NCBI GenBank assembly: GCA_046597705.1 | Contig: JBKJJZ010000510.1 | Coordinates: forward strand, 699-64,698 | Direction: 5' to 3' | Length of the DNA stretch: 64,000 nucleotides | DNA from: Vicinamibacterales bacterium | GTDB lineage: Bacteria > Acidobacteriota > Vicinamibacteria > Vicinamibacterales > SCN-69-37 | Part shown: piece after piece, positions 32,466 to 43,900 of the stretch | Layout of the letters: each line of letters starts with the position of its first letter | Position numbering within the stretch: the stretch's first letter is position 1 | Program-made: the position numbers and the translations under genes | Notes under the pieces: generated by a model | Told to the model about the DNA's origin: nothing | Seen by the model: the letters and a program-made list of their open reading frames with translations, nothing else | Databases searched by the model: none

Positions 32466-33628
32466 TACGATGGCCGGAGAGCCAGCAACAGATGACAATT
32501 GATGTTCTCGATGAACTTGCCCAGCTGATTGAGAACAAGCGCGATGCTCTGCTTTCCACGTGGCGCGCGCAGGTTCGGGAACTGCCGTCGGCGCAGAATC
32601 TGGACGCGCCTACACTCAACGATCACATACCGGACCTGCTGATGGAACTGGCCACGGCGCTCCGGGCGGGCCCCGGAGAAACCATTGCCGACGCCCTGCT
32701 CGACGACAGTCCGCCTGCGCATGGACTCCAGCGCGTCAAGGACGCATTCGACATCGAGGAGGTCGTTGCCGAGTACAACATCCTGCGCGGCTGCATCCAC
32801 GATCTGGCAGAGCAGCACGGTTTGAACATGCAGGGCAGCCCGTTTCGAGTCCTCAACCGCGTCCTCGATGGCGCGATTGGGTCGGCCGTAGAATCCTTCG
32901 CCACGCAAAAGGCGCTGGAGGTCCAGCATCGGCGAGAGGAATACCTGGCGTTCGTGGCCCACGACCTCCGCACGCCGTTGAACGCGATTGCGCTGTCAGG
33001 CCGGGCCCTGGCACTGGTCCTGACCCGGGACGAGACGGAAACGCCGCAGACCCGGCAGATGTTGAAGACGCTCAGCCGGAACGTGCACCATCTGGAGGCG
33101 CTGGTCAGCAAGGTCATCGAGGAGAACCAGAATCTCGAGACTGAAGTGGGCGTCAAGCTGGAACGCCGGGACTGCGATCTCTGGCCGCTGGTTGAAGCCC
33201 TCATTCATGACCTCCATCCAGTGGCCGGCACCCGCAGGACGCTCCTGACCAACGCCGTCAACGAAGACTGCGTCGTCTACGCCGATGCCAGCCTGTTGAG
33301 ACGGATACTGCAGAACCTCATCGCCAACGCCATTGCCTACACGCCACGAGGCGAAGTCATCATCGACGCGAGAGAGGCAGGTCCGTCCGGTGCTGTGGAG
33401 ATTGAAGTGCGTGATAACGGCGAGGGGATTCCGCCGGAACATCGGAGCACCGTCTTCGACAAGCACGAGACCGACCCCGATAAGGAGGGAGGTCTGGGGC
33501 TTGGCCTGGCCATCGTGAAGACGTTCGTCGAGGCCCACGACGGTGTGGTGACGTTCGACAGCCAACTTGGTGTGGGATCAACCTTCAGGTTTACATTTCC
33601 CGGCCGGCCCAAGACGCCGCAGCTTTGA
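32462..33628 (+). CDS. Cytoplasmic sensor histidine kinase (HisKA + HATPase_c)
   Basis: H-box FVAHDLRTPLNAI, N-box LQNLIANAIAYT, G-boxes RDNGEGIP and GGLGLGLAIV. The N-terminal helical sensor resembles an RsbRD-N-like domain. No TM segment is present. Confidence 0.85.
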   Translation: MIRWPESQQQMTIDVLDELAQLIENKRDALLSTWRAQVRELPSAQNLDAPTLNDHIPDLLMELATALRAGPGETIADALLDDSPPAHGLQRVKDAFDIEEVVAEYNILRGCIHDLAEQHGLNMQGSPFRVLNRVLDGAIGSAVESFATQKALEVQHRREEYLAFVAHDLRTPLNAIALSGRALALVLTRDETETPQTRQMLKTLSRNVHHLEALVSKVIEENQNLETEVGVKLERRDCDLWPLVEALIHDLHPVAGTRRTLLTNAVNEDCVVYADASLLRRILQNLIANAIAYTPRGEVIIDAREAGPSGAVEIEVRDNGEGIPPEHRSTVFDKHETDPDKEGGLGLGLAIVKTFVEAHDGVVTFDSQLGVGSTFRFTFPGRPKTPQL

Positions 33629-33638
33629 GAAAAGCCGC

Positions 33639-35000
33639 GTGCCCCGTTACCACTTCAACGATTTCGTCCTGTCGCCACGCCGCCGGCTGCTACTGCGCGG
33701 CGAGACGAAACAACCGCTGATTCCACGCTACTTCGATCTCCTGGTCTTTCTTGTCGAGCATCGCCACGAGGCCGTGCATCGGCGCGACATCTTTGATCGC
33801 GTCTGGACCGACGCCATCGTTTCTGACAGCGCGCTCAGCCAGGCGATCCGCACCATCCGCCGCGTCCTTGGCGACGACCACCGGGAGCCGAGATTTATCG
33901 GAACGGTCTCACGGCATGGATATCGCTTCGTCTTCGCCGAGGTTCGTGAAGAGGATGAAGATGCGGCGTGGCCGCCGGTGCAGGCGGTCGAGCCTGCGAT
34001 CGAAGTCGCGCTGCCGGCAACTGACCCGTTCGAGGTCCTCATAGCTCGTATCACACGGGTCGCAGCCGACGCCGCCGAGCAAGAAGATCAGCGCGAGGCC
34101 GCAGAGCTTCTTCATAGTCTTGGCACCGCGGAAGCGCTGCGACGCCTCGACCTGCGGCCAGGCCATGCACTCGGTCGTGCGCTGCTGCGCGATACCCGTT
34201 GGGATGCCGCCGAGGCGGGCAGCGTTCCGCTGATGGGGCAGCCCGCGCCGCTTGCGACGGCTCGCGCGCTGGTGCGGCTGCGCTTGCGGCGAGCATCGCG
34301 AGAAGTGGCTGCCAGGTGGCAAGGCGCGTCAGCCGGAGCCGCGGTGGCCGGAATGATTGGAGGTGCGCTGGGCGGCTTGCTGCTGGCCAGCGTTCCTGGA
34401 AGCGCAGCGTCGTTCGCGGTGGCTCCGGTGCTGGCTCTGATCGGTGCGGCCTGCGGCGCGCTCGGCGGCGCCGGTGTTGGCGCGGGATTGTCTGCAGCGG
34501 AGGCGGCGGCCCGCTCGCGGCGGACCCTTGCGCTGGTGTTCGGCGCTTCGGCCGGCGGCGGGCTGGCGGGCACCGCCGCCCAATGGCTGGGCCGATGGAG
34601 CCTGGCGGCGCTCGTTGGCGTACACCTTGATATCGGCGGAGCCCTGGAGGGCGTGATGATCGGCGCCGCCGCAGGACTGGGATATGGCCTGGCCACTTCC
34701 GGCACTGAGGCGGGCCTGGCCGCCCCACGGGGAGCACGCCGGTTTCGCGTGGCAATCGTGACCGCCATGTTCTGTGGCCTGGCCGCCCTCGTGTTGAGCA
34801 CCGCGGGCCGGCCGCTGGTCGGCGGCACGATTCACACGATTGCCACAGGCGCCACCGGGTCCCAGGCTGCGCTGACTCCGCTCAGCCGACTCATCGGCGA
34901 GCCGGACTTCGGTCCCGTATCAAGCGCCATCAGCGGCATCGTCGAAGGTGTGCTTTTCGGCCTTGGTCTCTCGTTCGGACTGACCCGGCGCCGCAAATAG
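33639..35000 (+). CDS. Membrane-anchored winged-helix (OmpR/CadC-type) transcriptional regulator without receiver domain
   Basis: The wHTH is FVLSPRRRLLLRGETKQPLIPRYFDLLVFLVEH...ALSQAIRTIRRVLGD...IGTVSRHGYRF. The C-terminal half holds Gly/Ala-rich TM segments. GTG 33639 follows the kinase stop. Confidence 0.7.
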   Translation: MPRYHFNDFVLSPRRRLLLRGETKQPLIPRYFDLLVFLVEHRHEAVHRRDIFDRVWTDAIVSDSALSQAIRTIRRVLGDDHREPRFIGTVSRHGYRFVFAEVREEDEDAAWPPVQAVEPAIEVALPATDPFEVLIARITRVAADAAEQEDQREAAELLHSLGTAEALRRLDLRPGHALGRALLRDTRWDAAEAGSVPLMGQPAPLATARALVRLRLRRASREVAARWQGASAGAAVAGMIGGALGGLLLASVPGSAASFAVAPVLALIGAACGALGGAGVGAGLSAAEAAARSRRTLALVFGASAGGGLAGTAAQWLGRWSLAALVGVHLDIGGALEGVMIGAAAGLGYGLATSGTEAGLAAPRGARRFRVAIVTAMFCGLAALVLSTAGRPLVGGTIHTIATGATGSQAALTPLSRLIGEPDFGPVSSAISGIVEGVLFGLGLSFGLTRRRK

Positions 35001-35127: not shown

Positions 35128-35874
35128 ATGACATCCGCTTGGCACGATCCCGAACAACCTGCACCCGGAGGCCGGGACAGGTTCCATGTGGCAATCAACA
35201 TGGATGGGAATGGCCGATGGGCGATTCTTCGGGGTCAGCCAAGGGAGGCCGGCCACGTCGAGGGAGGCAGGGCGGTTCGACGAACAGTGCAGGCCGCGTC
35301 CTCGTTCGGCATCACCACCCTCACGCTCTACGCGTTCTCCTCGGACAATTGGCGACGGCCCCGCGGCGAAGTGGATAACCTGATGCTGCTGTTCCAGCAG
35401 TATTTGGACTCCGAGTGCGCGCGTCTCACTGACAGTGACGTGCGTTTCAGTGTCATCGGGCGCCGGGATCGAATCTCGGAAGGTCTTCGGCACAGCATCG
35501 AAACCGTCGAGGCCCGCACGCGTGATGGCGCCGCTCTTCATCTCAGGATTGCCATCGATTATTCGGCCCGGGAGGCGCTCCTGGCGGCGGCTGGCCATGT
35601 CACAGGGGGAACGCCGCCCACCCGTGAGGCATTCGAACGTTCCATGTATGAGGCGATTCACGCCGCGCCCGATACGCGCTACGTGGACTTGCTCATCCGC
35701 ACCGGTGGAGAAAAACGTCTGAGTGACTTCCTGCTGTGGGAGTCCGCTTACGCTGAGCTCTATTTCACCGACGTCATGTGGCCAGACTTTACTAAGGCCG
35801 ATCTTGCGGCCGCCGTTCAGGCATTCGCAGCCCGTGATCGGCGATACGGCGCAATACGGCAGGCCGCTCCATGA
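35128..35874 (+). CDS. uppS: Isoprenyl transferase (undecaprenyl-diphosphate synthase family, cis-prenyltransferase)
   Basis: Motifs HVAINMDGNGRWA, GHVEGG, LTLYAFSSDNWRRP and DLLIRTGGEKRLSDFLLWESAYAELYF. Confidence 0.9.
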   Translation: MTSAWHDPEQPAPGGRDRFHVAINMDGNGRWAILRGQPREAGHVEGGRAVRRTVQAASSFGITTLTLYAFSSDNWRRPRGEVDNLMLLFQQYLDSECARLTDSDVRFSVIGRRDRISEGLRHSIETVEARTRDGAALHLRIAIDYSAREALLAAAGHVTGGTPPTREAFERSMYEAIHAAPDTRYVDLLIRTGGEKRLSDFLLWESAYAELYFTDVMWPDFTKADLAAAVQAFAARDRRYGAIRQAAP

Positions 35875-36644
35875 ACAACCGGTTTCTCGTCTGCATCCAC
35901 GACGCCACGCCGGCCTACGCACGCGAGACTCAAGAGATGATCCGGGATCTCGCCCCGTTACTCGGGCGTCGTCTCTCGTTCGCGGTCGTCCCCGACTGGC
36001 ACGGCAACTGGCCGTTGGCGGCCGCTCCCGACTATTGCCGGCTGATCCTCGAGAACTCGGAGGAGCTACTCCTGCACGGCTACCTGCATCACCAACCTTC
36101 GCTAATCGCTCGCGACGCTCGCAGCTATGGTTGGCTTCGCCGGACCAGCGGTGCGTTCGTGTCGTTGTTGACGCAATCAGCTGACGAAATGAACGGCCTC
36201 ACTCCTGACGAAACACACTACGTCCTCGATTGCGGGCAGCGCGTTTTCATCGAGATGTTCGGAGCGCCTGCGCGTGGCTTCCTCGCGCCGGCGTGGCAGC
36301 CCGGCCATGTGCGTGCGGGCAGCAGTCACGCGCCAGGCATCGAACACGTCCTTGGATTCTTCTCGCTCGAGTCCAGCACGGGCCGAAACATTCCGCTGGC
36401 CACATGGGCGTGGGACTGCGGCCGGTGGGGCTGGCTGGGACACATCGGCCATGGCATCGGGCGGCTGTCACACTCACTCAATCGCGGTGTGCCGGTCCTG
36501 GCCATTCATCCCAGAGACGTGCAACGAGGCTTCTGGCCCACGATCCTCCGGCTCACCAACGAACTTCTCGAGCAAGGGTACGAACCAGGCACTCCGGCGC
36601 AGCTGTTGGCAGCGCAACGGGGTTCTCAGAGCCGCGCATGCTGA
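35871..36644 (+). CDS. DUF2334 / polysaccharide-deacetylase-like protein
   Basis: FLVCIHDATPAYARE...FAVVPDWHG...LLLHGYLH. The ATG overlaps the uppS stop (ATGA). Confidence 0.55.
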   Translation: MNNRFLVCIHDATPAYARETQEMIRDLAPLLGRRLSFAVVPDWHGNWPLAAAPDYCRLILENSEELLLHGYLHHQPSLIARDARSYGWLRRTSGAFVSLLTQSADEMNGLTPDETHYVLDCGQRVFIEMFGAPARGFLAPAWQPGHVRAGSSHAPGIEHVLGFFSLESSTGRNIPLATWAWDCGRWGWLGHIGHGIGRLSHSLNRGVPVLAIHPRDVQRGFWPTILRLTNELLEQGYEPGTPAQLLAAQRGSQSRAC

Positions 36645-37252
36645 AGCAGATCTTCGACCGAGTCATGGAGCGACGGGCTCGCGTGCTGATGGAGCAGGTT
36701 GGTGCGTGGCTCCCCAGCGACGGACCCTTGCTTGACTTCGGTTCAGGGACTGGGCATTTCGCCGCACTGCTTGAACAACAGCGGGCGCTCGAAGTGGTCA
36801 CCGTGGACGTGAGCGATATTCATGTGGTGGGCCGGCCCCCGGTCGTAATCGCCGAAGGCGCGCTGCCATTTCAGGACAACGCGTTCTCGGCCGCGATGCT
36901 CTTCTTCATGCTCGCGTACCCGAACAATCCAACGGCCGTGCTGATGGAAGTGGCTCGCGTCACCCGCGGTCCCATCATTCTGGTGCAGTCGATTCACTCG
37001 AGCCGGCTGGGCTACGCGTGGCTTCGCGCGCGCGAGTTCGTCTGGACCGTTGTGGCCTTCCGTGTGTCGAAGGCCCTTGGCTATGTGCCTGCAGGCGCCA
37101 GGTTCAGCATGAATACGCAGCGGTTCTATACCGCCGAGGCACTTCAGAAAGACGTGGCAGCCGCCGGCCTTCAGGTTCGGTCGCAGCGACACCGAACCGT
37201 GTTGCCGGGCGGAGCGTTGGTGATCGCCGGCTGGAGCCTGCAGGCGCGATGA
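36638..37252 (+). CDS. Class I SAM-dependent methyltransferase
   Basis: Motif I is LLDFGSGTGHFA. The ATG at 36638 overlaps the upstream stop. Confidence 0.7.
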   Translation: MLKQIFDRVMERRARVLMEQVGAWLPSDGPLLDFGSGTGHFAALLEQQRALEVVTVDVSDIHVVGRPPVVIAEGALPFQDNAFSAAMLFFMLAYPNNPTAVLMEVARVTRGPIILVQSIHSSRLGYAWLRAREFVWTVVAFRVSKALGYVPAGARFSMNTQRFYTAEALQKDVAAAGLQVRSQRHRTVLPGGALVIAGWSLQAR

Positions 37253-38019
37253 GCGAAACCCGGCTCTCCTTCGTGATACCGGCGCACAACGAGGAGGCGC
37301 TGATTGGCGAGACCCTACAGGCGATTCTCGAGAGCGTGGCTCGCGCAACAGACGTGTGCCGGCGCGATCTCTGGCTCCCCGATTCACCGTTCGAGGTGAT
37401 CGTGGCCGACGATGCGAGCGACGATGACACGGCGGCCGCAGTTGGGAAGTTCAGCGACGACAACGGTGTGCGCCTGGTTCGCTGCGTCGGCGGAACCTGC
37501 GCCGCGGCCCGCAACGCGGGGGCAGCCGCCAGCGTGGGGCGCGTGCTCTGTTTCGTTGACGCGGATACCCTGGTTCCGGAGTCCGCGGTCGTTCGCATCC
37601 TCAAGCTGCATGAAGATGAAGGGCGGTGCCTGGTGTTGTATCGGCTCGCCTCCAGGGAGCCCGGCGTCCGCGCGTGGTTCTGGTGGAGCTTCTGGGGCAT
37701 GGCTCGGCGCGTCCCTTTGGCCAGGGCCAAGTCCATGCCGGCGTTCATGAGCTGTGACCGCGCCCACTTCAAGCGCTACGGTCCCTTCAACGAGTCCTGC
37801 GCGATTGCCGAAGAGTGGCCCCTTACCGGCGCGGCGTATCGGCACCACCGCGAGCGATTCCTCTATGATCGAAGCATCACGGCTCGCACCTCCAGCCGTC
37901 GGATGGAACTCCAGCCGTTCGGATACCTTCGAACATACCTGAAGTGGATCTCGGTGGTCCTCTTCCCCTGGGCGCGAACCTCGCTTACCGATATTCGACA
38001 CGAGATTCATCGTGGCTGA
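37249..38019 (+). CDS. Family 2 glycosyltransferase
   Basis: Motifs SFVIPAHNEE, VIVADDASDDDT and CFVDADT (DxD). ATGA overlap with the methyltransferase gene. Confidence 0.8.
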   Translation: MSETRLSFVIPAHNEEALIGETLQAILESVARATDVCRRDLWLPDSPFEVIVADDASDDDTAAAVGKFSDDNGVRLVRCVGGTCAAARNAGAAASVGRVLCFVDADTLVPESAVVRILKLHEDEGRCLVLYRLASREPGVRAWFWWSFWGMARRVPLARAKSMPAFMSCDRAHFKRYGPFNESCAIAEEWPLTGAAYRHHRERFLYDRSITARTSSRRMELQPFGYLRTYLKWISVVLFPWARTSLTDIRHEIHRG

Positions 38020-38779
38020 ACGCGCATACTTTTTCGCGAGCCTTTCTCTGGGATGGCTGCTCCGATCTGCCACGTACTCGCGAATCCGGGTCATCAATGA
38101 CAACGGCAACCGGAAGGTGCGCAAACGCCGCGGCTTCCACGCGCCCGTCTTGATCTGGATGGGTGGACTGGTTGCACGGATTCTGAATACCGGTCAGCGT
38201 GTGCTCGGACAGAAGGACTGGGAGGAGCGGGAGCGGCTGATCTACCAGGAGGTGCGCGGGACCTCCATCCAGGTCGATGCCGATGGGACGCTCGTCCTGC
38301 CGTTCATCGAGGGAAGAACACTCGCCACCCTGCTGGAGGACCCGGCCCGCGATGAATCGATGCGGAAGGAGGCGATTGAATCAGCGGTCGTCGCCCTCGC
38401 CCAGTTCCATCGGCTCGGCTTCACCCATGGAGACGCCATGGCTGAGAACGTGCTGATCGATGATTCGCGCGTCGCCCACTGGCTCGACTTTGAGTGCGTT
38501 CATGATTCGAGGCACTCCGTGGTCTGGCGGCGCGCCGATGATCTGCGATCACTGCTGTTCACGTGTCTCGTCCGCACCGCTCCAGAGAAAGTCCCAGAAG
38601 CGCTCCAGGCCATCCTGGTTGCTTACGGAGACGCAGATGTCGCTCAGGAATTGACGACGAGCTTCACGTCGGTGTGGCGCCGCTCGCTTGCCTTCCATCT
38701 TGCGCAGGCGAGATTGTCTTTTCAGTCGTTCCAGCAAATCGGCCGGTTACTTCAGGCGTTCAGAGGGGGCCCGCACTAG
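38012..38779 (+). CDS. Protein-kinase-like fold protein, Kdo/WaaP lipopolysaccharide-kinase family-like
   Basis: The catalytic-loop-like segment is FTHGDAMAENVLID and the DFG-like segment is WLDFECV. The GTG overlaps the GT2 3' end. Confidence 0.55.
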   Translation: MAERAYFFASLSLGWLLRSATYSRIRVINDNGNRKVRKRRGFHAPVLIWMGGLVARILNTGQRVLGQKDWEERERLIYQEVRGTSIQVDADGTLVLPFIEGRTLATLLEDPARDESMRKEAIESAVVALAQFHRLGFTHGDAMAENVLIDDSRVAHWLDFECVHDSRHSVVWRRADDLRSLLFTCLVRTAPEKVPEALQAILVAYGDADVAQELTTSFTSVWRRSLAFHLAQARLSFQSFQQIGRLLQAFRGGPH

Positions 38780-39642
38780 TGGCAGCACCCGATTCGCTCC
38801 AGCGCCACCGCGACGCCGTGCGCGCGCGACTGATTCACTCCAACCACGTGCGGACGCGGCCCGGCAGCGTCACGTGGAAAGTCAACCGCGAAATGGTGGT
38901 TGTGGCTGGCTGGGGCCGGGCCATCCTGCTGCAGCTTGCGCATCCATCGGTCGCTGCCGGCGTGCACGGCCACAGCACATTCCGTGGCAGCCTGTGCTCC
39001 AGCTTCAAGCGCCTGCACTCAACCGCTGGCGCGATGCTGTCCCTCACCTTCGGTGATACAGAGCAGATGATCAGAGCCGCCGCCGGCATCAACGCTATTC
39101 ACGACCGGGTACGCGGCCACGTCCCGGGGCCGGCCCGGCAGGCGTACTCCGCCCACGATCCAGATCTGCAACGGTGGGTGCACGCCACAATGCTCGACAC
39201 GATTCCACTCACATACGAACGTCTCGTCGGCCCACTGACTCTGCGTGAGCGGGATCAGTACTGCGTGGAAGCCGCGATCATGGAACCGCTCATGGGGATG
39301 CCGGACGGATGGCTCCCGAGAGACTCAGCGCAACTCGACAGCTACATGCGCCAGATGCTGGCCGGAGGCACACTGGTTGTGACCGACAACAGCCGGGCGC
39401 TGGCACAAGCACTTCTGTACCCGCCGCGATGGTATCTGCTCTGGCCGGCCTTCCGGCCCATGCAGCTGTTGACGGTCGGCTCGCTTCCGGCATCGATCCG
39501 GCAGGCCTACGGATTCGAGTGGCGCCCACGCGACGAGCGAGCCCTCGCGCGATGGATCAGATTGCTGAAAGCCTCGCAGCGGCTGCTTCCGCCCGTTGCG
39601 CGCGAGTGGCCGGTCGCAAGGCCTTCGAGGAGTGACGATTGA
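38779..39642 (+). CDS. DUF2236 / MpaB-family oxygenase-like protein
   Basis: VNREMVVVAGWGRAILLQLAHPSVAAGV...INAIHDRV...DLQRWVHATM. GTG 38779 shares a base with the upstream TAG. Confidence 0.6.
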   Translation: MAAPDSLQRHRDAVRARLIHSNHVRTRPGSVTWKVNREMVVVAGWGRAILLQLAHPSVAAGVHGHSTFRGSLCSSFKRLHSTAGAMLSLTFGDTEQMIRAAAGINAIHDRVRGHVPGPARQAYSAHDPDLQRWVHATMLDTIPLTYERLVGPLTLRERDQYCVEAAIMEPLMGMPDGWLPRDSAQLDSYMRQMLAGGTLVVTDNSRALAQALLYPPRWYLLWPAFRPMQLLTVGSLPASIRQAYGFEWRPRDERALARWIRLLKASQRLLPPVAREWPVARPSRSDD

Positions 39643-40832
39643 CTAAGAAACAAACATGGCTCGCGGTGATCGTGCTGATCCCCGGGCTGCTGATTCTGTT
39701 CGTGATGGGTCTGTTTATCTGGATGTCCTCCACTCCGCCCCTGCACCCGAATCCTCAGGATGTGCCATCGTCAGCGCAGTCGGCCCCTGGCGTGGAATGG
39801 GCTGCCGCGGTAGAGCAGGGCAAGCAGATCGTCCGTGCGAGCCTCGTCGAGCAGAACCTGCCGGGACTTTCGGTGGCGGTGGGCGTTGGCGGCAGCATCG
39901 TCTGGGCCGAAGGCATTGGCTTTGCGGATCTCGAGAAGCGCGTGCCCGTGTCCCTGGATACGCGCTTCAGGATCGGCACCGCTTCCATGGCGCTCACCTC
40001 GGCCGCCGTCGGCTTGCTGCTGGAGAGGGACCGGCTGAAGCTCGACGACAAGATACAGACGTACGTGCCCGAGTTTCCGGAGAAGCAGTGGCCTGTGACG
40101 TTGCGCCAACTGATGGGGCATGTCGGCGGCGTCATGAGAGACAACGGGGATGAGGAACCTGTCACGGTGCGATGCGAGGGAACTCTCGATGCGCTCGGAC
40201 GTTTTTCAAAGGCGCCACTGCGGTTCGAGCCTGGCACTGAGTTCCGTGTTTCCACCTATGGCTGGATTCTGGTGAGCGGGGCCGTCGAGAAGGCCTCGGA
40301 CGACCCGTTCTTCACCTTCATGCGGAGGCAGGTGTTCGAGCCGCTGGGCATGGTCGACACGAAGGCGGACTCCGCAATGGAGCCAAGCACGGACGGGGCG
40401 GTTTTCTATTTCCCGCAGTTTGCAGGCGATCCTCGCTACGGCCCGCAGGAACCAGGCGACGTGGACTATTCCTGCTTCGCCGGAGCCGCCGCATTCCTTT
40501 CAACCCCATCGGACCTTGTGCGCTTCGGTATGGCAGTCAACAGCGGCAAGTTCCTGCAGCCCGCCACGGTCCAACTACTCCAGACGGGACAGCGATTGTC
40601 GTCGGGAGAAGAGACGGGTTACGGCCTCGGTTGGGACCTTGAAGTGGCCACGCTAATGGGTGAACAAACCACTCTGGTAGGTCACGACGGGGAAATGAGT
40701 GGCGGGATGGTGTCGTCGTTGATGACGTTTCCCAAGCAAGGCATCGTCGTCTCGGTACTGTCGAATACCGCGTACGCGGACACGTTTTCTCTTGGCGTGA
40801 AACTGGCGCAGACCTTCGCGCAGAAGCGATAG
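39639..40832 (+). CDS. Beta-lactamase-fold serine-hydrolase family protein, membrane-anchored, catalytic motifs apparently substituted
   Basis: N-terminal TM segment. Fold signatures LPGLSVAVGVGGSIVWAEGIGFADLE, LRQLMGH and GLGWDL. TASM sits where SxxK is expected and VST where YxN is expected. TTGA overlap with the upstream gene. Confidence 0.65.
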   Translation: MTKKQTWLAVIVLIPGLLILFVMGLFIWMSSTPPLHPNPQDVPSSAQSAPGVEWAAAVEQGKQIVRASLVEQNLPGLSVAVGVGGSIVWAEGIGFADLEKRVPVSLDTRFRIGTASMALTSAAVGLLLERDRLKLDDKIQTYVPEFPEKQWPVTLRQLMGHVGGVMRDNGDEEPVTVRCEGTLDALGRFSKAPLRFEPGTEFRVSTYGWILVSGAVEKASDDPFFTFMRRQVFEPLGMVDTKADSAMEPSTDGAVFYFPQFAGDPRYGPQEPGDVDYSCFAGAAAFLSTPSDLVRFGMAVNSGKFLQPATVQLLQTGQRLSSGEETGYGLGWDLEVATLMGEQTTLVGHDGEMSGGMVSSLMTFPKQGIVVSVLSNTAYADTFSLGVKLAQTFAQKR

Positions 40833-40837
40833 GGAGG

Positions 40838-40897
40838 TACGTAGGGCATCCCTTTAGGGGCGCCGAATTGGCGCGGCTGAAGCCACGCCCTACGTAC
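40838..40897. repeat. Head-to-head pair of REP-like elements, one type-1 and one type-2 stem
   Basis: Sequence is gtacgtagggcatccctttaggggcgccgaattggcgcggctgaagccacgccctacgtac. The ends GTACGTAGGGC/GCCCTACGTAC are mutually complementary. Confidence 0.9.
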
Positions 40898-40919
40898 TAT
40901 ACGGAAGTCAAAAGCGCTC

Positions 40920-43900
40920 TTAGCCCAGGTTGATGTAGGGGCTCTTGCCGTCGAGCACGGCGGCGCCTGGATGAGACCACGCGCCGATGTAGCAGAAGGC
41001 GGCCCAGTCGCGCGGTTGCGGGTAAGCGGCACGAACCGCAAGCTGCGCCCGGCGGAACGCTTCGAGGCGGGTTGCGCCCTGGGCGAGTTCACCATACAGC
41101 CTAGGGAAAAACGTCGCGGCTGCATCGTCCGATAATTCCCAGAGGGAGGCGACGATGGAGGAGACGCCTGCGGCCAGGAGAGCCGCGGGGAGTCCACTGA
41201 GGTTGTCGCCGGCGTCGAACCTTCCCAGGGCCGAGTCGCAACTCCCGAGTGAAAGCAGTTCGAGGCCGCGCAGATCGTGCCCGAAGATTTCGTACGCGCA
41301 GATGCGGCCGTCCGACTCCGCGTCGGGCGTCACGAACAGATGCTGAAACAGTGGCGAGCTTGCGTTGTTGGCACCATGCGCGCAGAGGTGAACCCACCGG
41401 TTCGATGTCAGGGCGATAAATATGCGCGCTTCCGTCACCTCGGCGTCCAGCAGCGGGTCCGTCTTGGTTGCCGCGGCAATTGCCTGCACCTCATGATGCG
41501 CGCCGGGTAGCTCGACGAGCGGAAATGGCTCTCCGTCTTTGTAGCTCAGGCCCAGGGCCTGCACCGCTCCCTCCCGAGTCTCAGGTGCCGGCTGCATAAG
41601 GCACTCCAGACTTGGAATTGTCGTCACGGTCCAGTGCTGGGCAAGGTCCTCGTCGCCAGGACCCAGAATGTGGAGCGGATAGTACCGAAGCGCGCCATAG
41701 GGGCGAATGCACAGGTGAGTCTTTCCAGCCTTTCGCAGCGTCTCCAGGTGCGTCCACGTGGGCATGCCGAGCAGGATGTTGAAATCGCTGGCCAGCGCCT
41801 CCCTGGCGTCAGCGTGCAGGAGTTGCACTGCGGGATCGAGAGGATCGAGGGGCAGCGAGTGGCGGAGGCGATACGTCTGCATGCCTATGTCATCAACCAC
41901 CGCCTGCGACCCTTCCTTGCCCACCAGGTATTCCTGATGGTCGCCAGGCACCAGGTTCTTGAAGCACAGAATCTCTTCGCGCGTGTACGCGAGGATATAC
42001 ACGGCGTATTGCTTCGCGTCGTGCGGGGCGTAGTAGTAGTCCAGCAGCACGGTGTCCGGACCCAGCAGCTGGCCGATGGCTTCGGGGTCGAGAATCGCGC
42101 TCGATCGAACGCCCTCGATCAGCAATTGAGTCAGGCGGCGATCGAGTGCGCGCTGCAGATTGGCCAGCCGGCTGGCCTCGGTGTCCCCGCTCTGCGGTTC
42201 GCCGGCGCTCGATGCGCTGACTAGCAGCACTTCGTCCATTGGTTCCAGGTCTTCGTCCAGCCCAACCGCATTCTGCAGTTGCACGATTGCGTTCGACATC
42301 TGGGCGGCAGCCTCGTCTTCACGCCAGTCGAATGCCGGGCCCTGTCGCAGCAGCGCGCTGAAGCGCGCGCCCTTGGCCAACTGAAGGAGCATCGCCACGG
42401 TGGCCGAGTTGATGGAGTCTCCCAGGTTTGCGAACGCATTCCGGTAGACGGCCTGAAGCGCCTCGTCGCCGGACGCACCGAGCTCGCGATCGATTTCGAA
42501 CGCGACGGGCGCAAGCGCGGCGAGGGCCGCGAACAACATGTCTTCGCCCGGCTTTCCGGCCATATCCGCAATGGCCGCGAGCAGGTCGAACACGGCCGAC
42601 GGCATGCCCAGCCGGAGCGTGGGTGCCAGCGCCTGGGCGTACGCCTGAACGGCGGCGCTTGCATCCCCAGCCTTCACCGCATTCTTCGCGATGCCGATGC
42701 AGAGATGCGCGTAAAGAAAAGAGAGCGGTTCCTGATACGCGGCGATGGAGGGAGACTTCTGGATGGCGGTCTTCAACAGGCGCAGTCCCGTTTCCTCGTC
42801 GTCAGTTGTTTCCGAGCGCATCGCCAGCCAGACCAGCGCGGCGCACGCGCGATCGATGGGCCAGTGCTCAGCGTCCGCCGTCTTCATGACGCGATCCACC
42901 GTCTCCTTGAAGGAACCCTCGATGGGTGAGTTCAGCGCGCCACCGTGTGCGAGGGGGATCAGCTGCATCATCGCGAGCAGTCGCTTTCGGCGAAGTGCTT
43001 CCGTTGCAGAGTCACGGAAAAGGGCCGCGGCGTCCACAAGAACGCTGAGGGCGCGTGCGGGGTCGGTGGCTTTCAAGGCCGCCTGCAGCTGAAGCGCTGC
43101 CTCCGGCGAATCGGGGTTGAAGTCGGCCGCGGGAGCCGGAGCGCCCTCCAACCCCAGTCTGGCCATCAGAGCGACAAGCGCGCGGTGTTGATATTCACCC
43201 GCCGGCAGAAGTGGCAGAGCCTCCGCGCAAAGCTTCGTCATGCGTGCGCGATCCGGTTCTTCGTTCCGGGCGCGTGCGAGGAATTCCAGCGTCTGCACCA
43301 TCGCCTTGAGCGTGATCCCCTGTTGTTCCCCGGCTCGATCCGGAAGGGCACGCTCGTAGTAGTCGATCGCGGTCTGCAAGGCGTCCTTCGCGCTGGGGAG
43401 CGGGTACGTGTCCAGATGTTGCCGCGCAAGCGCCGGGCCCTTCACCGCCTCGAGTTTGCGCAATTGCTGTCGCTGATTGATTTCGTCAACTCCCCAGCCG
43501 CTGGGTCCGGAGACAGGGTCCGAGTACAAAACACCCAGCGCGTGGAGCAGTGCACCGCGGCGGGGATCCGATTCGCTGGAGACCAGCCGCTCCAGTACGT
43601 TCCTGCCCAGCGCCTCCGCGGCCTGCAGCATTTCGCCATCCGGGAACGAGCCGAGACCTGCGCCCGCGATCTGGATGAATCCCGTTGCCGCGATCTCCAG
43701 CCTTTCGTTCATGGATTTCCCGGGACAGGTGGCCAGACACGCTTCGGACAACAGCCGCGTCCAGAGCATCGCCGTGGCAGCGTCCTTGCCTGTCACCAGT
43801 TGTTCGGCATGCCACGTCAGGGCGTGCACATAGATCGGCGCGAGCTGCACCAGGAACTCAGGACGCCGTACATGCTCCAGCGCCGCTTTGAGCGAGGTCT

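Follow-up and report, generated by a model that had tools for sequence, protein, structure and literature searches.

The window analysed here is a 64,000-nucleotide (nt) stretch of contig JBKJJZ010000510.1 (assembly GCA_046597705.1) from a Vicinamibacterales bacterium of the phylum Acidobacteriota. At positions 35128 to 40832 it carries seven open reading frames (ORFs) on the plus strand, g1 to g7, which begin with a UppS-type cis-prenyltransferase and end with a membrane-anchored beta-lactamase-fold protein (Table 1). The original prediction had placed these seven genes here, had assigned each of them a domain and had described them as overlapping at every junction; the ORFs are present as it placed them, Pfam reproduced the domain calls for all seven, and all six junctions overlap. 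Its claim of an operon was likewise borne out, as the genes overlap throughout and the order g2-g3-g4-g5 recurs elsewhere. What is conserved is a cassette of four to five genes, namely g2, g3, g4 and g5, with or without a gene for an EamA-like membrane protein. Among the products of g1 to g7, a membrane anchor is found in g7 alone (residues 3-35). Since g1 to g6 contain no hydrophobic segment and hence no transmembrane segment, their chemistry is expected to be cytoplasmic or peripheral.

Table 1. Genes, junctions and other features at the locus (window coordinates).
Feature	Position	Strand	Evidence or remark
g0, CadC/ToxR-like one-component regulator	33567..35000	+	Pfam Trans_reg_C 58.8 bits; NCBIfam CadC/HilA-like matches
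g1, UppS-type cis-prenyltransferase (polyprenyl diphosphate synthase)	35128..35874	+	Pfam Prenyltransf PF01255 232.6 bits
g2, DUF2334/COG3233 deacetylase-fold protein	35871..36644	+	Pfam DUF2334 30.9 bits (cut-off 26)
g3, small class-I S-adenosylmethionine (SAM)-dependent methyltransferase, 204 amino acids (aa)	36638..37252	+	Methyltransf_23 46.5, Methyltransf_11 35.9 bits
g4, family-2 glycosyltransferase (GT2), GT-A fold, 256 aa	37249..38019	+	Glycos_transf_2 81.2 bits
g5, minimal protein-kinase-like kinase, 255 aa, N-terminal amphipathic helix	38012..38779	+	Kdo/WaaP 23.3 bits (cut-off 21.3, marginal)
g6, MpaB/Lcp-family (former DUF2236) putative oxygenase	38779..39642	+	MPAB_Lcp_cat PF09995 182.1 bits (cut-off 23)
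g7, membrane-anchored beta-lactamase/penicillin-binding-protein-fold protein	39639..40832	+	Beta-lactamase PF00144 205 bits
GC-rich composite hairpin between convergent g7 and CHAT genes	40837..40897	.	RNA fold
Junction g1/g2	g1 stop 35874, g2 ATG 35871		4 nt overlap
Junction g2/g3	g2 stop 36644, g3 ATG 36638		7 nt overlap
Junction g3/g4	g3 stop 37252, g4 ATG 37249		4 nt overlap
Junction g4/g5	g4 stop 38019, g5 GTG 38012		8 nt overlap
Junction g5/g6	g5 stop 38779, g6 GTG 38779		1 nt overlap
Junction g6/g7	g6 stop 39642, g7 TTG 39639		4 nt overlap

The window proteins were mapped by tblastn onto 45 loci carrying the core, obtained by scanning one genome for each prokaryotic species, and onto further contigs to which individual proteins had led (related loci are given L numbers below). 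These maps replaced a crude clustering of ORFs, in which the GC-rich DNA had produced misleading over-extended and antisense ORFs. All 45 genome loci stem from metagenome-assembled genomes (MAGs), and no cultured organism is among them; their host labels are Acidobacteriota (Vicinamibacterales, Thermoanaerobaculia and unclassified) and Gemmatimonadota (Gemmatimonadaceae and Longimicrobiales). Likewise, the 1365 homologues of the DUF2334 protein g2 in the protein collection are nearly all metagenomic. In every locus with enough flanking sequence, g2-g3-g4-g5 occur in the same order and on the same strand, and genomes and metagenomes together supply over 40 loci with this arrangement. Fortuitous adjacency of g1 to g5 was therefore rejected: an order that recurs in dozens of loci is not the product of chance. 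The EamA-like protein, of about 120 aa, is encoded between g4 and g5 in approximately half of the related loci. The idea of a single unit of seven genes was rejected as well, given that g6 and g7 are rare and the core often occurs without g1; the seven genes do not form one co-conserved set, as g6 is found in four and g7 in two of about 45 genome loci. The literature searched yielded no description of the cassette, in agreement with the original prediction, which knew of no description of such a pathway, and DUF2334 is hardly mentioned there, in an unrelated context.

In some long-read MAG contigs from ENA/NCBI (L039, L041, L044, L050 and L059), g2 and sometimes g3 and g4 are split over two to three frames, which probably reflects nanopore homopolymer errors rather than pseudogenes. 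Such splits make gene callers miss or fuse genes, e.g. a 445-aa 'GT2' in L050. One MAG, CAVREM01 (MFD05176.bin.2.265), holds two different g1-plus-core clusters on two contigs, L005 and L015; the layout of L015 is near-identical to that of L018 from another MAG, and the pair reflects either genuine duplication or mixing of genomes in the bin. A distant DUF2334-like 'polysaccharide deacetylase' with 25% identity to g2 is encoded on plasmid p01 of a cultured strain, Sphingomonas sp. FARSPH (L142, 228126-232322), where the gene is followed by two glycosyltransferase genes and one for a DUF2141 protein, together an uncharacterised set.

How is the prenyltransferase gene tied to this cassette? Upstream of the core, g1 is present in 19 of the 32 well-flanked loci, and the remaining 13, mainly from Gemmatimonadota, have no adjacent prenyltransferase. 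In a tree of the concatenated core proteins, nearly all prenyltransferase-linked loci form one derived clade with Acidobacteriota labels (L024 is an outlier), inside which the window groups with L001 and L115. The prenyltransferase is joined to the core in this one clade only, where the two are mostly translationally coupled. The basal Gemmatimonadota/Longimicrobiales branches carry no prenyltransferase; there, the genes upstream of the core encode a BD-FAE hydrolase, an M1 peptidase or a MacB permease.

A metagenome scan with an alignment of g1-type sequences returned 80 loci, of which 69 could be evaluated. The gene next to g1 was g2 in 52 of these 69, a MacB permease in five and an unrelated gene in 12; where contigs are longer, the permease lies between g1 and g2. 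The core thus follows in 52 to 57 of the 69 loci, which upholds the proposal of a prenyltransferase coupled to tailoring enzymes and shows that the coupling recurs. Where both genes are present, an overlap is seen at 46 of 82 g1/g2 junctions; in 34 cases it measures exactly 4 nt, and at another 26 junctions the two genes lie within 60 nt of each other. The divergence of g1 is also correlated with that of the core (Mantel r 0.72 on pairwise divergences), at a level reached by none of 2000 permutations.

However, the core is absent downstream in 12 to 17 of the 69 g1-type loci, so that g1 is not restricted to pathway genes. Five long contigs with g1 orthologues or populations comprise three with the core (some of them frameshifted), one with g1 alone and one with a deleted core; g1 without the core is seen, for example, in L049. 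Collectively, the link between g1 and the core is real and old within the clade, yet g1 is independent of the core. In loci L051 to L054 (e.g. L051:8001-8878), an intact g1 precedes an ORF of 39 codons that matches the N-terminus of g2 over its first 24 residues; two esterase genes come next. These four loci, from JGI samples 3300045977, 3300045978, 3300045884 and 3300045920, represent one population in several samples, in which, as this deletion scar shows, the core cassette was lost and uppS kept. In one sub-clade, a MacB/FtsX-type permease of 850 aa is inserted between g1 and g2 (L023:670-3204, L031:7386-9986, L041, L072, L073, L016 and L027). The same permease (74-84% identity) is likewise the immediate upstream neighbour of g2 in some loci that lack g1.

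The sequence of g1 is that of a conventional enzyme. It passes the cut-offs of TIGR00055 (227.5 bits vs. 109.55) and PF01255 (cut-off 27) and falls just short of that of NF011412 (325 vs. 334 bits). Among PDB entries, E. coli UPPS matches it best (188.8 bits), and its identity to E. coli IspU (b0174) is 43%. In an alignment with IspU and nine relatives, g1 shares with all of them D26, the GNGRWA motif (G27-A32), R39, H43, S71, N74, W75 and R77 (E. coli numbering), and also R194, E198, R200, E213 and the C-terminal RxG. Its helix 3 shows no gap or deletion relative to E. coli UPPS, as fits a medium or long chain. By these features, g1 is probably an ordinary medium-chain (C50-C55) UppS. It shares both the catalytic residues and the helix-3 length with the housekeeping enzyme; the difference is in the setting, as E. 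coli ispU sits in frr-dxr-ispU-cdsA-rseP, whereas g1 follows a regulator gene and precedes genes for tailoring enzymes.

This setting had led the original prediction to regard g1 as an extra uppS out of its usual context, a view that now appears doubtful. In the 64-kb window, g1 is the sole UppS homologue, and frr, dxr, cdsA and rseP are lacking; none of these four genes adjoins uppS in any of the 119 retrieved loci that carry it. The best 120 matches to g1 are all orthologues with 75-87% identity. When 1.8 billion representatives were searched, the g1 family formed a single cluster (405 bits). Next after this cluster (≤ 244 bits, 50-55% identity) came UppS proteins from Terriglobia, Ca. Acidoferrum, Gemmatimonadota and Gemmatimonas, and the sister genes from Terriglobia and Gemmatimonadota likewise lie outside the frr-cdsA context. 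Long UppS 'fusions' among the representatives have LytB, DnaJ or unrecognisable partners, and neither Frr nor CdsA is among these. UppS family P0271, found on long ENA contigs, was considered as a candidate second uppS and rejected as alphaproteobacterial.

Genes for a protein of about 200 aa (p204) and an HTH_34 regulator lie upstream of uppS in two of three sister loci, and the same pair precedes g1-type genes in L041, L060, L118, L137 and L138. The trio of p204 (which belongs to no Pfam family), the HTH_34 (ArsR/PadR-like) regulator and UppS is thus spread over Terriglobia, Gemmatimonadota and the g1-type clade (L057:3758-5750, L058:4113-5726 and L060:4589-6448; also L041, L118, L137 and L138). 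We know of no description of a regulated uppS unit like this one.

All catalytic residues of g1 are kept, its sister genes share its context, it survives deletion of the core and it sometimes occurs alone. Because of these four points, we lean, by a little better than even, towards g1 being the resident or general uppS of its lineage, perhaps the only one, behind which the cassette was inserted. That g1 is a dedicated extra paralogue is distinctly less probable, and to a small extent we assign it to neither status. The simplest history would take p204-HTH_34-uppS as the resident arrangement in these phyla, have the cassette inserted behind uppS in an acidobacterial ancestor, and have a CadC-like regulator replace HTH_34 in the sub-lineage of the window. 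The cassette itself branches more basally in Gemmatimonadota, and its similarity between the two phyla is high.

What the cassette may do was approached through its individual proteins. The g2 protein aligns weakly, over its full length, with NF053788, the family of the N-acetylglucosamine (GlcNAc)-phosphatidylglycerol deacetylase GpgD (58.4 bits vs. a cut-off of 280). Its residues H10-D11, H69...H73, H213 and D216 are invariant among 15 orthologues, and this His/Asp set is the one to be expected of metal-dependent deacetylases. A sequence search of the PDB gave no match for g2, which is predicted to be a cytoplasmic N-deacetylase of a lipid-linked N-acetylhexosamine. The methyltransferase gene g3 follows g2 in all related loci, and the PDB matches of its product are all to methyltransferases of a generic kind. 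The most conserved core gene is g4, with 72-87% identity across 28 loci from both phyla, in all of which D55 and the DxD motif (D104-A-D106) are invariant. g4 scores weakly against every named GT2 family (e.g. TIGR04283, 67 bits vs. 182; ArnC, 20.2 vs. 529), and its PDB matches are generic.

The kinase-like protein g5 retains K38, E74, H139-G-D141...N146 (HGDxxxxN) and D159-F-E161 (DFE) in all of 24 orthologues. Its match to Kdo/WaaP (PF06293) spans the C-lobe only, the Pkinase and APH matches stay under their cut-offs, and the NCBIfam matches, to Bud32 and Kdo kinase, are weak (29.8 bits for the Kdo-kinase equivalog vs. a cut-off of 142). An AlphaFold model of g5 has a mean confidence (pLDDT) of 87, and Foldseek assigned it to the generic protein-kinase fold (TM score ∼0.4) and to no subfamily. 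The PDB sequence search also returned a weak match to the kinase domain of WbdD (E-value 0.008).

Taken together with these protein features, the EamA-like gene in half of the loci, the absence of membrane segments from the enzymes and the coupling to UppS suggest a pathway to a membrane lipid. We tentatively propose, giving the idea slightly less than an even chance, that the cassette makes a deacetylated, tailored amino-sugar lipid at the cytoplasmic face, probably on polyprenyl phosphate. In this scheme, g4 would work on the cytoplasmic side of the inner membrane, loading a membrane lipid with an N-acetylhexosamine taken from a UDP-sugar; the acceptor would most likely be polyprenyl phosphate. 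By analogy with GpgD, g2 would then strip the acetyl group and expose a free amine. g3 and g5 would tailor the head group by N- or O-methylation and phosphorylation, possibly ending in a WbdD-like methyl-phosphate cap, and the EamA-like (ArnE/F-like) protein, where present, would flip the product outward.

Several known systems provide a frame for this proposal. In Pseudomonas aeruginosa, GpgD deacetylates GlcNAc-phosphatidylglycerol, the product of the glycosyltransferase encoded beside it, and the next gene encodes a putative flippase (Khan, Palmer and Guan, 2025; PMC12713373). No other characterised DUF2334/COG3233 enzyme was found in the literature searched. As in GpgSDF, a glycosyltransferase gene is located near that of a cytoplasmic DUF2334/COG3233 deacetylase (g2 and g4 share one operon in all loci), and the logic proposed here is the same, namely transfer of an N-acetylhexosamine onto a membrane lipid followed by deacetylation to a cationic amino sugar. 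The two systems differ in their synthases, GT4 there and GT2 here, and in their flippases, which are of the UPF0104/AglD2 type in GpgSDF; the candidate here is the small EamA-like protein, which the window lacks. The methyltransferase, the kinase and, in this clade, the cis-prenyltransferase are additions relative to GpgSDF.

HexSDF of C. difficile produces aminohexosyl-hexosyl-diradylglycerol, and this product changes antibiotic susceptibility (Pannullo et al., 2023; PMC10128005). It, too, is a synthase-deacetylase-flippase operon under a dedicated envelope-responsive regulator. However, its enzymes come from other families (a monogalactosyldiacylglycerol-synthase-like glycosyltransferase, a CE4 polysaccharide deacetylase and an MprF-like flippase), its regulator is a two-component system where CadC-like or HTH_34 regulators are found here, and it includes no methyltransferase, kinase or prenyltransferase.

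A polyprenyl acceptor is used by ArnC/ArnD/ArnE-F/ArnT, Francisella FlmF2/NaxD/FlmK and Bordetella LgmA-D, the undecaprenyl-phosphate amino-sugar pathways for lipid A modification. There, a GT2 enzyme loads the sugar on polyprenyl phosphate, a cytoplasmic de-N-acylase then frees the amine, and small EamA/SMR-like subunits flip the product; the same logic would explain the coupling to UppS. Unlike these pathways, the cassette has a deacetylase of another family, an additional methyltransferase and kinase, no conserved ArnT-like GT-C enzyme nearby, and in g4 a glycosyltransferase that lacks the membrane helices of ArnC and scores far below the ArnC cut-off, as given above. For the tailoring steps, the closest parallel is WbdD of E. 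coli O9a (PDB 4AZS and others), a bifunctional kinase-methyltransferase that caps the O-antigen with methyl-phosphate. WbdD likewise combines a protein-kinase-like sugar kinase with a SAM methyltransferase acting on a polyprenyl-linked glycan, and its kinase domain is the one weakly matched by g5. The similarity is marginal, however; here the two activities would reside in separate small proteins without a coiled-coil ruler, and the PDB sequence search gave no match between g3 and the WbdD methyltransferase domain.

A number of observations weigh against the proposed amino-sugar lipid pathway. The score of g2 is below the GpgD equivalog cut-off, and g2 is hence not an orthologue of GpgD. g4 is no closer to polyprenyl-phosphate GT2s (ArnC, 20 bits; PgfS, 21.5 bits) than to GT2s of other kinds, the C-terminal membrane helices of the polyprenyl-phosphate enzymes are missing from it, and its AlphaFold model, built on too shallow an alignment, is too poor (pLDDT 49) for structure comparison. 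The window itself has no EamA-like gene; g4 and g5 overlap there. No ArnT-like GT-C transferase is conserved in the annotated neighbourhoods, where a lone weak PMT_2 match, in L050, is 6.5 kb away on the other strand. In Gemmatimonadota the cassette occurs without an adjacent prenyltransferase, and coupling to uppS is no proof of a polyprenyl acceptor, because canonical uppS adjoins cdsA without a common pathway. For all five proteins, substrate and product are inferred by analogy only.

The best family of g5, the lipopolysaccharide (LPS) kinases, would also fit a decoration of the LPS core instead. In such a scheme, the cassette would act on LPS core or lipid A at the cytoplasmic face, with the GT2 enzyme adding GlcNAc, the deacetylase converting it to glucosamine (GlcN), the WaaP/Kdo-kinase-like enzyme phosphorylating it and the methyltransferase capping it, and the proximity of uppS would reflect a general neighbourhood of envelope genes. 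Klebsiella WabH/WabN offer a precedent in that GlcNAc is added and then deacetylated to GlcN. The host phyla are diderm, all of the enzymes are soluble or peripheral, Kdo/WaaP is the only Pfam family whose cut-off g5 passes, Kdo kinase is among its NCBIfam matches, and WbdD, its weak PDB match, caps an O-antigen with methyl-phosphate. Still, we consider this scheme rather improbable, as no lpx, waa or kds gene occurs in any annotated neighbourhood, the g5 matches are marginal (23.3 bits) and fail the Kdo-kinase equivalog, and neither an EamA-like flippase-type gene nor tight coupling to uppS would be expected.

That g1 to g6 are free of membrane segments would also suit an amino-sugar metabolite that is soluble; this could be a compatible solute, a precursor of a low-molecular-weight thiol or a compound of the aminoglycoside type, with the kinase serving activation or self-resistance and the uppS link being incidental. 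Mycothiol and bacillithiol synthesis begin with pairs of a glycosyltransferase and a deacetylase, and g5 has a weak APH-family match. Nevertheless, this explanation is most unlikely: the sole characterised DUF2334 enzyme found, GpgD, acts on a lipid; half of the loci encode the EamA-like membrane protein; 46 of 82 junctions show translational coupling to uppS; and no ligase, cyclase or further sugar-pathway genes are present.

Outside the core, the window carries the accessory genes g0, g6 and g7. A gap of 127 nt separates g0 from g1, and a histidine kinase gene precedes g0. The g0 protein combines an N-terminal winged-helix DNA-binding domain with a multi-pass membrane C-terminus (hydrophobic segments 255-308, 392-415 and 454-472), and its orthologues (63-86% identity) adjoin the prenyltransferase gene in L001, L010, L031, L039 and L044. 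Orthologues of g6 are confined to L001, L010, L039 and L044, and their place around the cluster varies; a PDB sequence search with g6 gave no match. Orthologues of g7 were found in L001 and L044 (two copies each), L049 and L112. Among the 45 genome loci, the ones with g6 or g7, plus L031, are the ones with the CadC-like regulator.

At the SxxK position, g7 of the window reads G-T-A-S-M, with Ser replaced by Thr and Lys by Met, and its paralogues and orthologues have T/H-x-S-K. Because Thr or His stands at the Ser position, the whole subfamily lacks the canonical nucleophile, and g7 is, on this evidence, probably a non-catalytic binding protein. In L049 (12138-14397), which has g1 without the core, a 294-aa Pkinase/Kdo-like kinase that is not a g5 orthologue is encoded immediately before a g7-type gene whose product is 67% identical to g7; this pairing of kinase and beta-lactamase-fold protein may be a unit of its own. 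g0, g6 and g7 are lineage-specific gains in the closest relatives of the window, and they point to an envelope-stress-regulated remodelling of surface charge or composition.

Downstream of g7, a convergent CHAT-domain gene is set apart by the strong GC-rich hairpin, which starts directly after the g7 stop codon. The fold of 40825-40925 has a free energy of -41.8 kcal/mol (z = -2.72), equalled by none of 200 shuffles. Its outer stem is GUACGUAGGGC/GCCCUACGUAC. The hairpin has no U-tract; it is likely to be the 3' boundary of the operon, and its role as a terminator is inferred. The GC content is uniform across the window (∼63%).

The original prediction had gone further and read the seven genes as one pathway, headed by a second, dedicated cis-prenyltransferase and leading to an undescribed glycosylated, methylated, phosphorylated or oxidised polyprenyl lipid. 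Besides the overlap at every junction and the linkage of g1 to the core in 75-83% of g1-type loci, such a pathway would account for a regulator gene directly upstream of g1 (CadC-like in five relatives, HTH_34 in others); a conserved upstream regulator is unusual for a housekeeping gene. In the MpaB/Lcp family, to which g6 belongs, the characterised branches, Lcp and MpaB', cleave isoprenoid double bonds, and MpaB and beta-lactamase-fold genes stay near the cluster in four relatives despite their shifting positions. The location of g6 beside a poly-cis-prenyl synthase gene is thus suggestive, though only four relatives have g6. We nonetheless regard the seven-gene pathway as unlikely, given that about 90% of core loci are without g6 and g7, that 13 of 32 have the core without g1, that g1 outlasts deletion of the core, and that g1 is an ordinary UppS whose sister genes are equally 'out of context'.

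A more specific version is very unlikely in our view. Here, g1 would be dedicated, and the product would be a free membrane lipid of a class not known before, a polyprenyl-phospho-glucosamine with an N-methylated amine, a phosphorylated sugar and a zwitterionic or cationic head group; in the lineage of the window, the MpaB/Lcp oxygenase would cut the poly-cis-isoprenoid chain, and the dead beta-lactamase-fold protein would be a periplasmic binder or sensor. If true, this would give a 'rubber-oxygenase-like' enzyme its first physiological role in biosynthesis, with a bacterial polyprenyl lipid as its substrate.

The amino-sugar lipid remains our preferred product for the conserved cassette. The cassette resembles the amino-sugar lipid modules GpgSDF and HexSDF and the Arn-type polyprenyl-phosphate pathways, yet it draws on different enzyme families and brings in a methyltransferase as well as a new minimal kinase, joined in one clade by UppS. 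In soil, Acidobacteriota and Gemmatimonadota rank with the most abundant bacteria, and their envelope chemistry is little known; a cassette so widespread and so strongly conserved in both phyla marks an unstudied envelope trait. Should the product indeed be a cationic or zwitterionic amino-sugar lipid, this would extend the charge remodelling by lipid-linked glucosamine known from GpgSDF and HexSDF to new enzyme families, with added methylation and phosphorylation and possibly a polyprenyl acceptor. It would also be the second functional assignment in the DUF2334 family and give a first role to the new family of minimal kinases.

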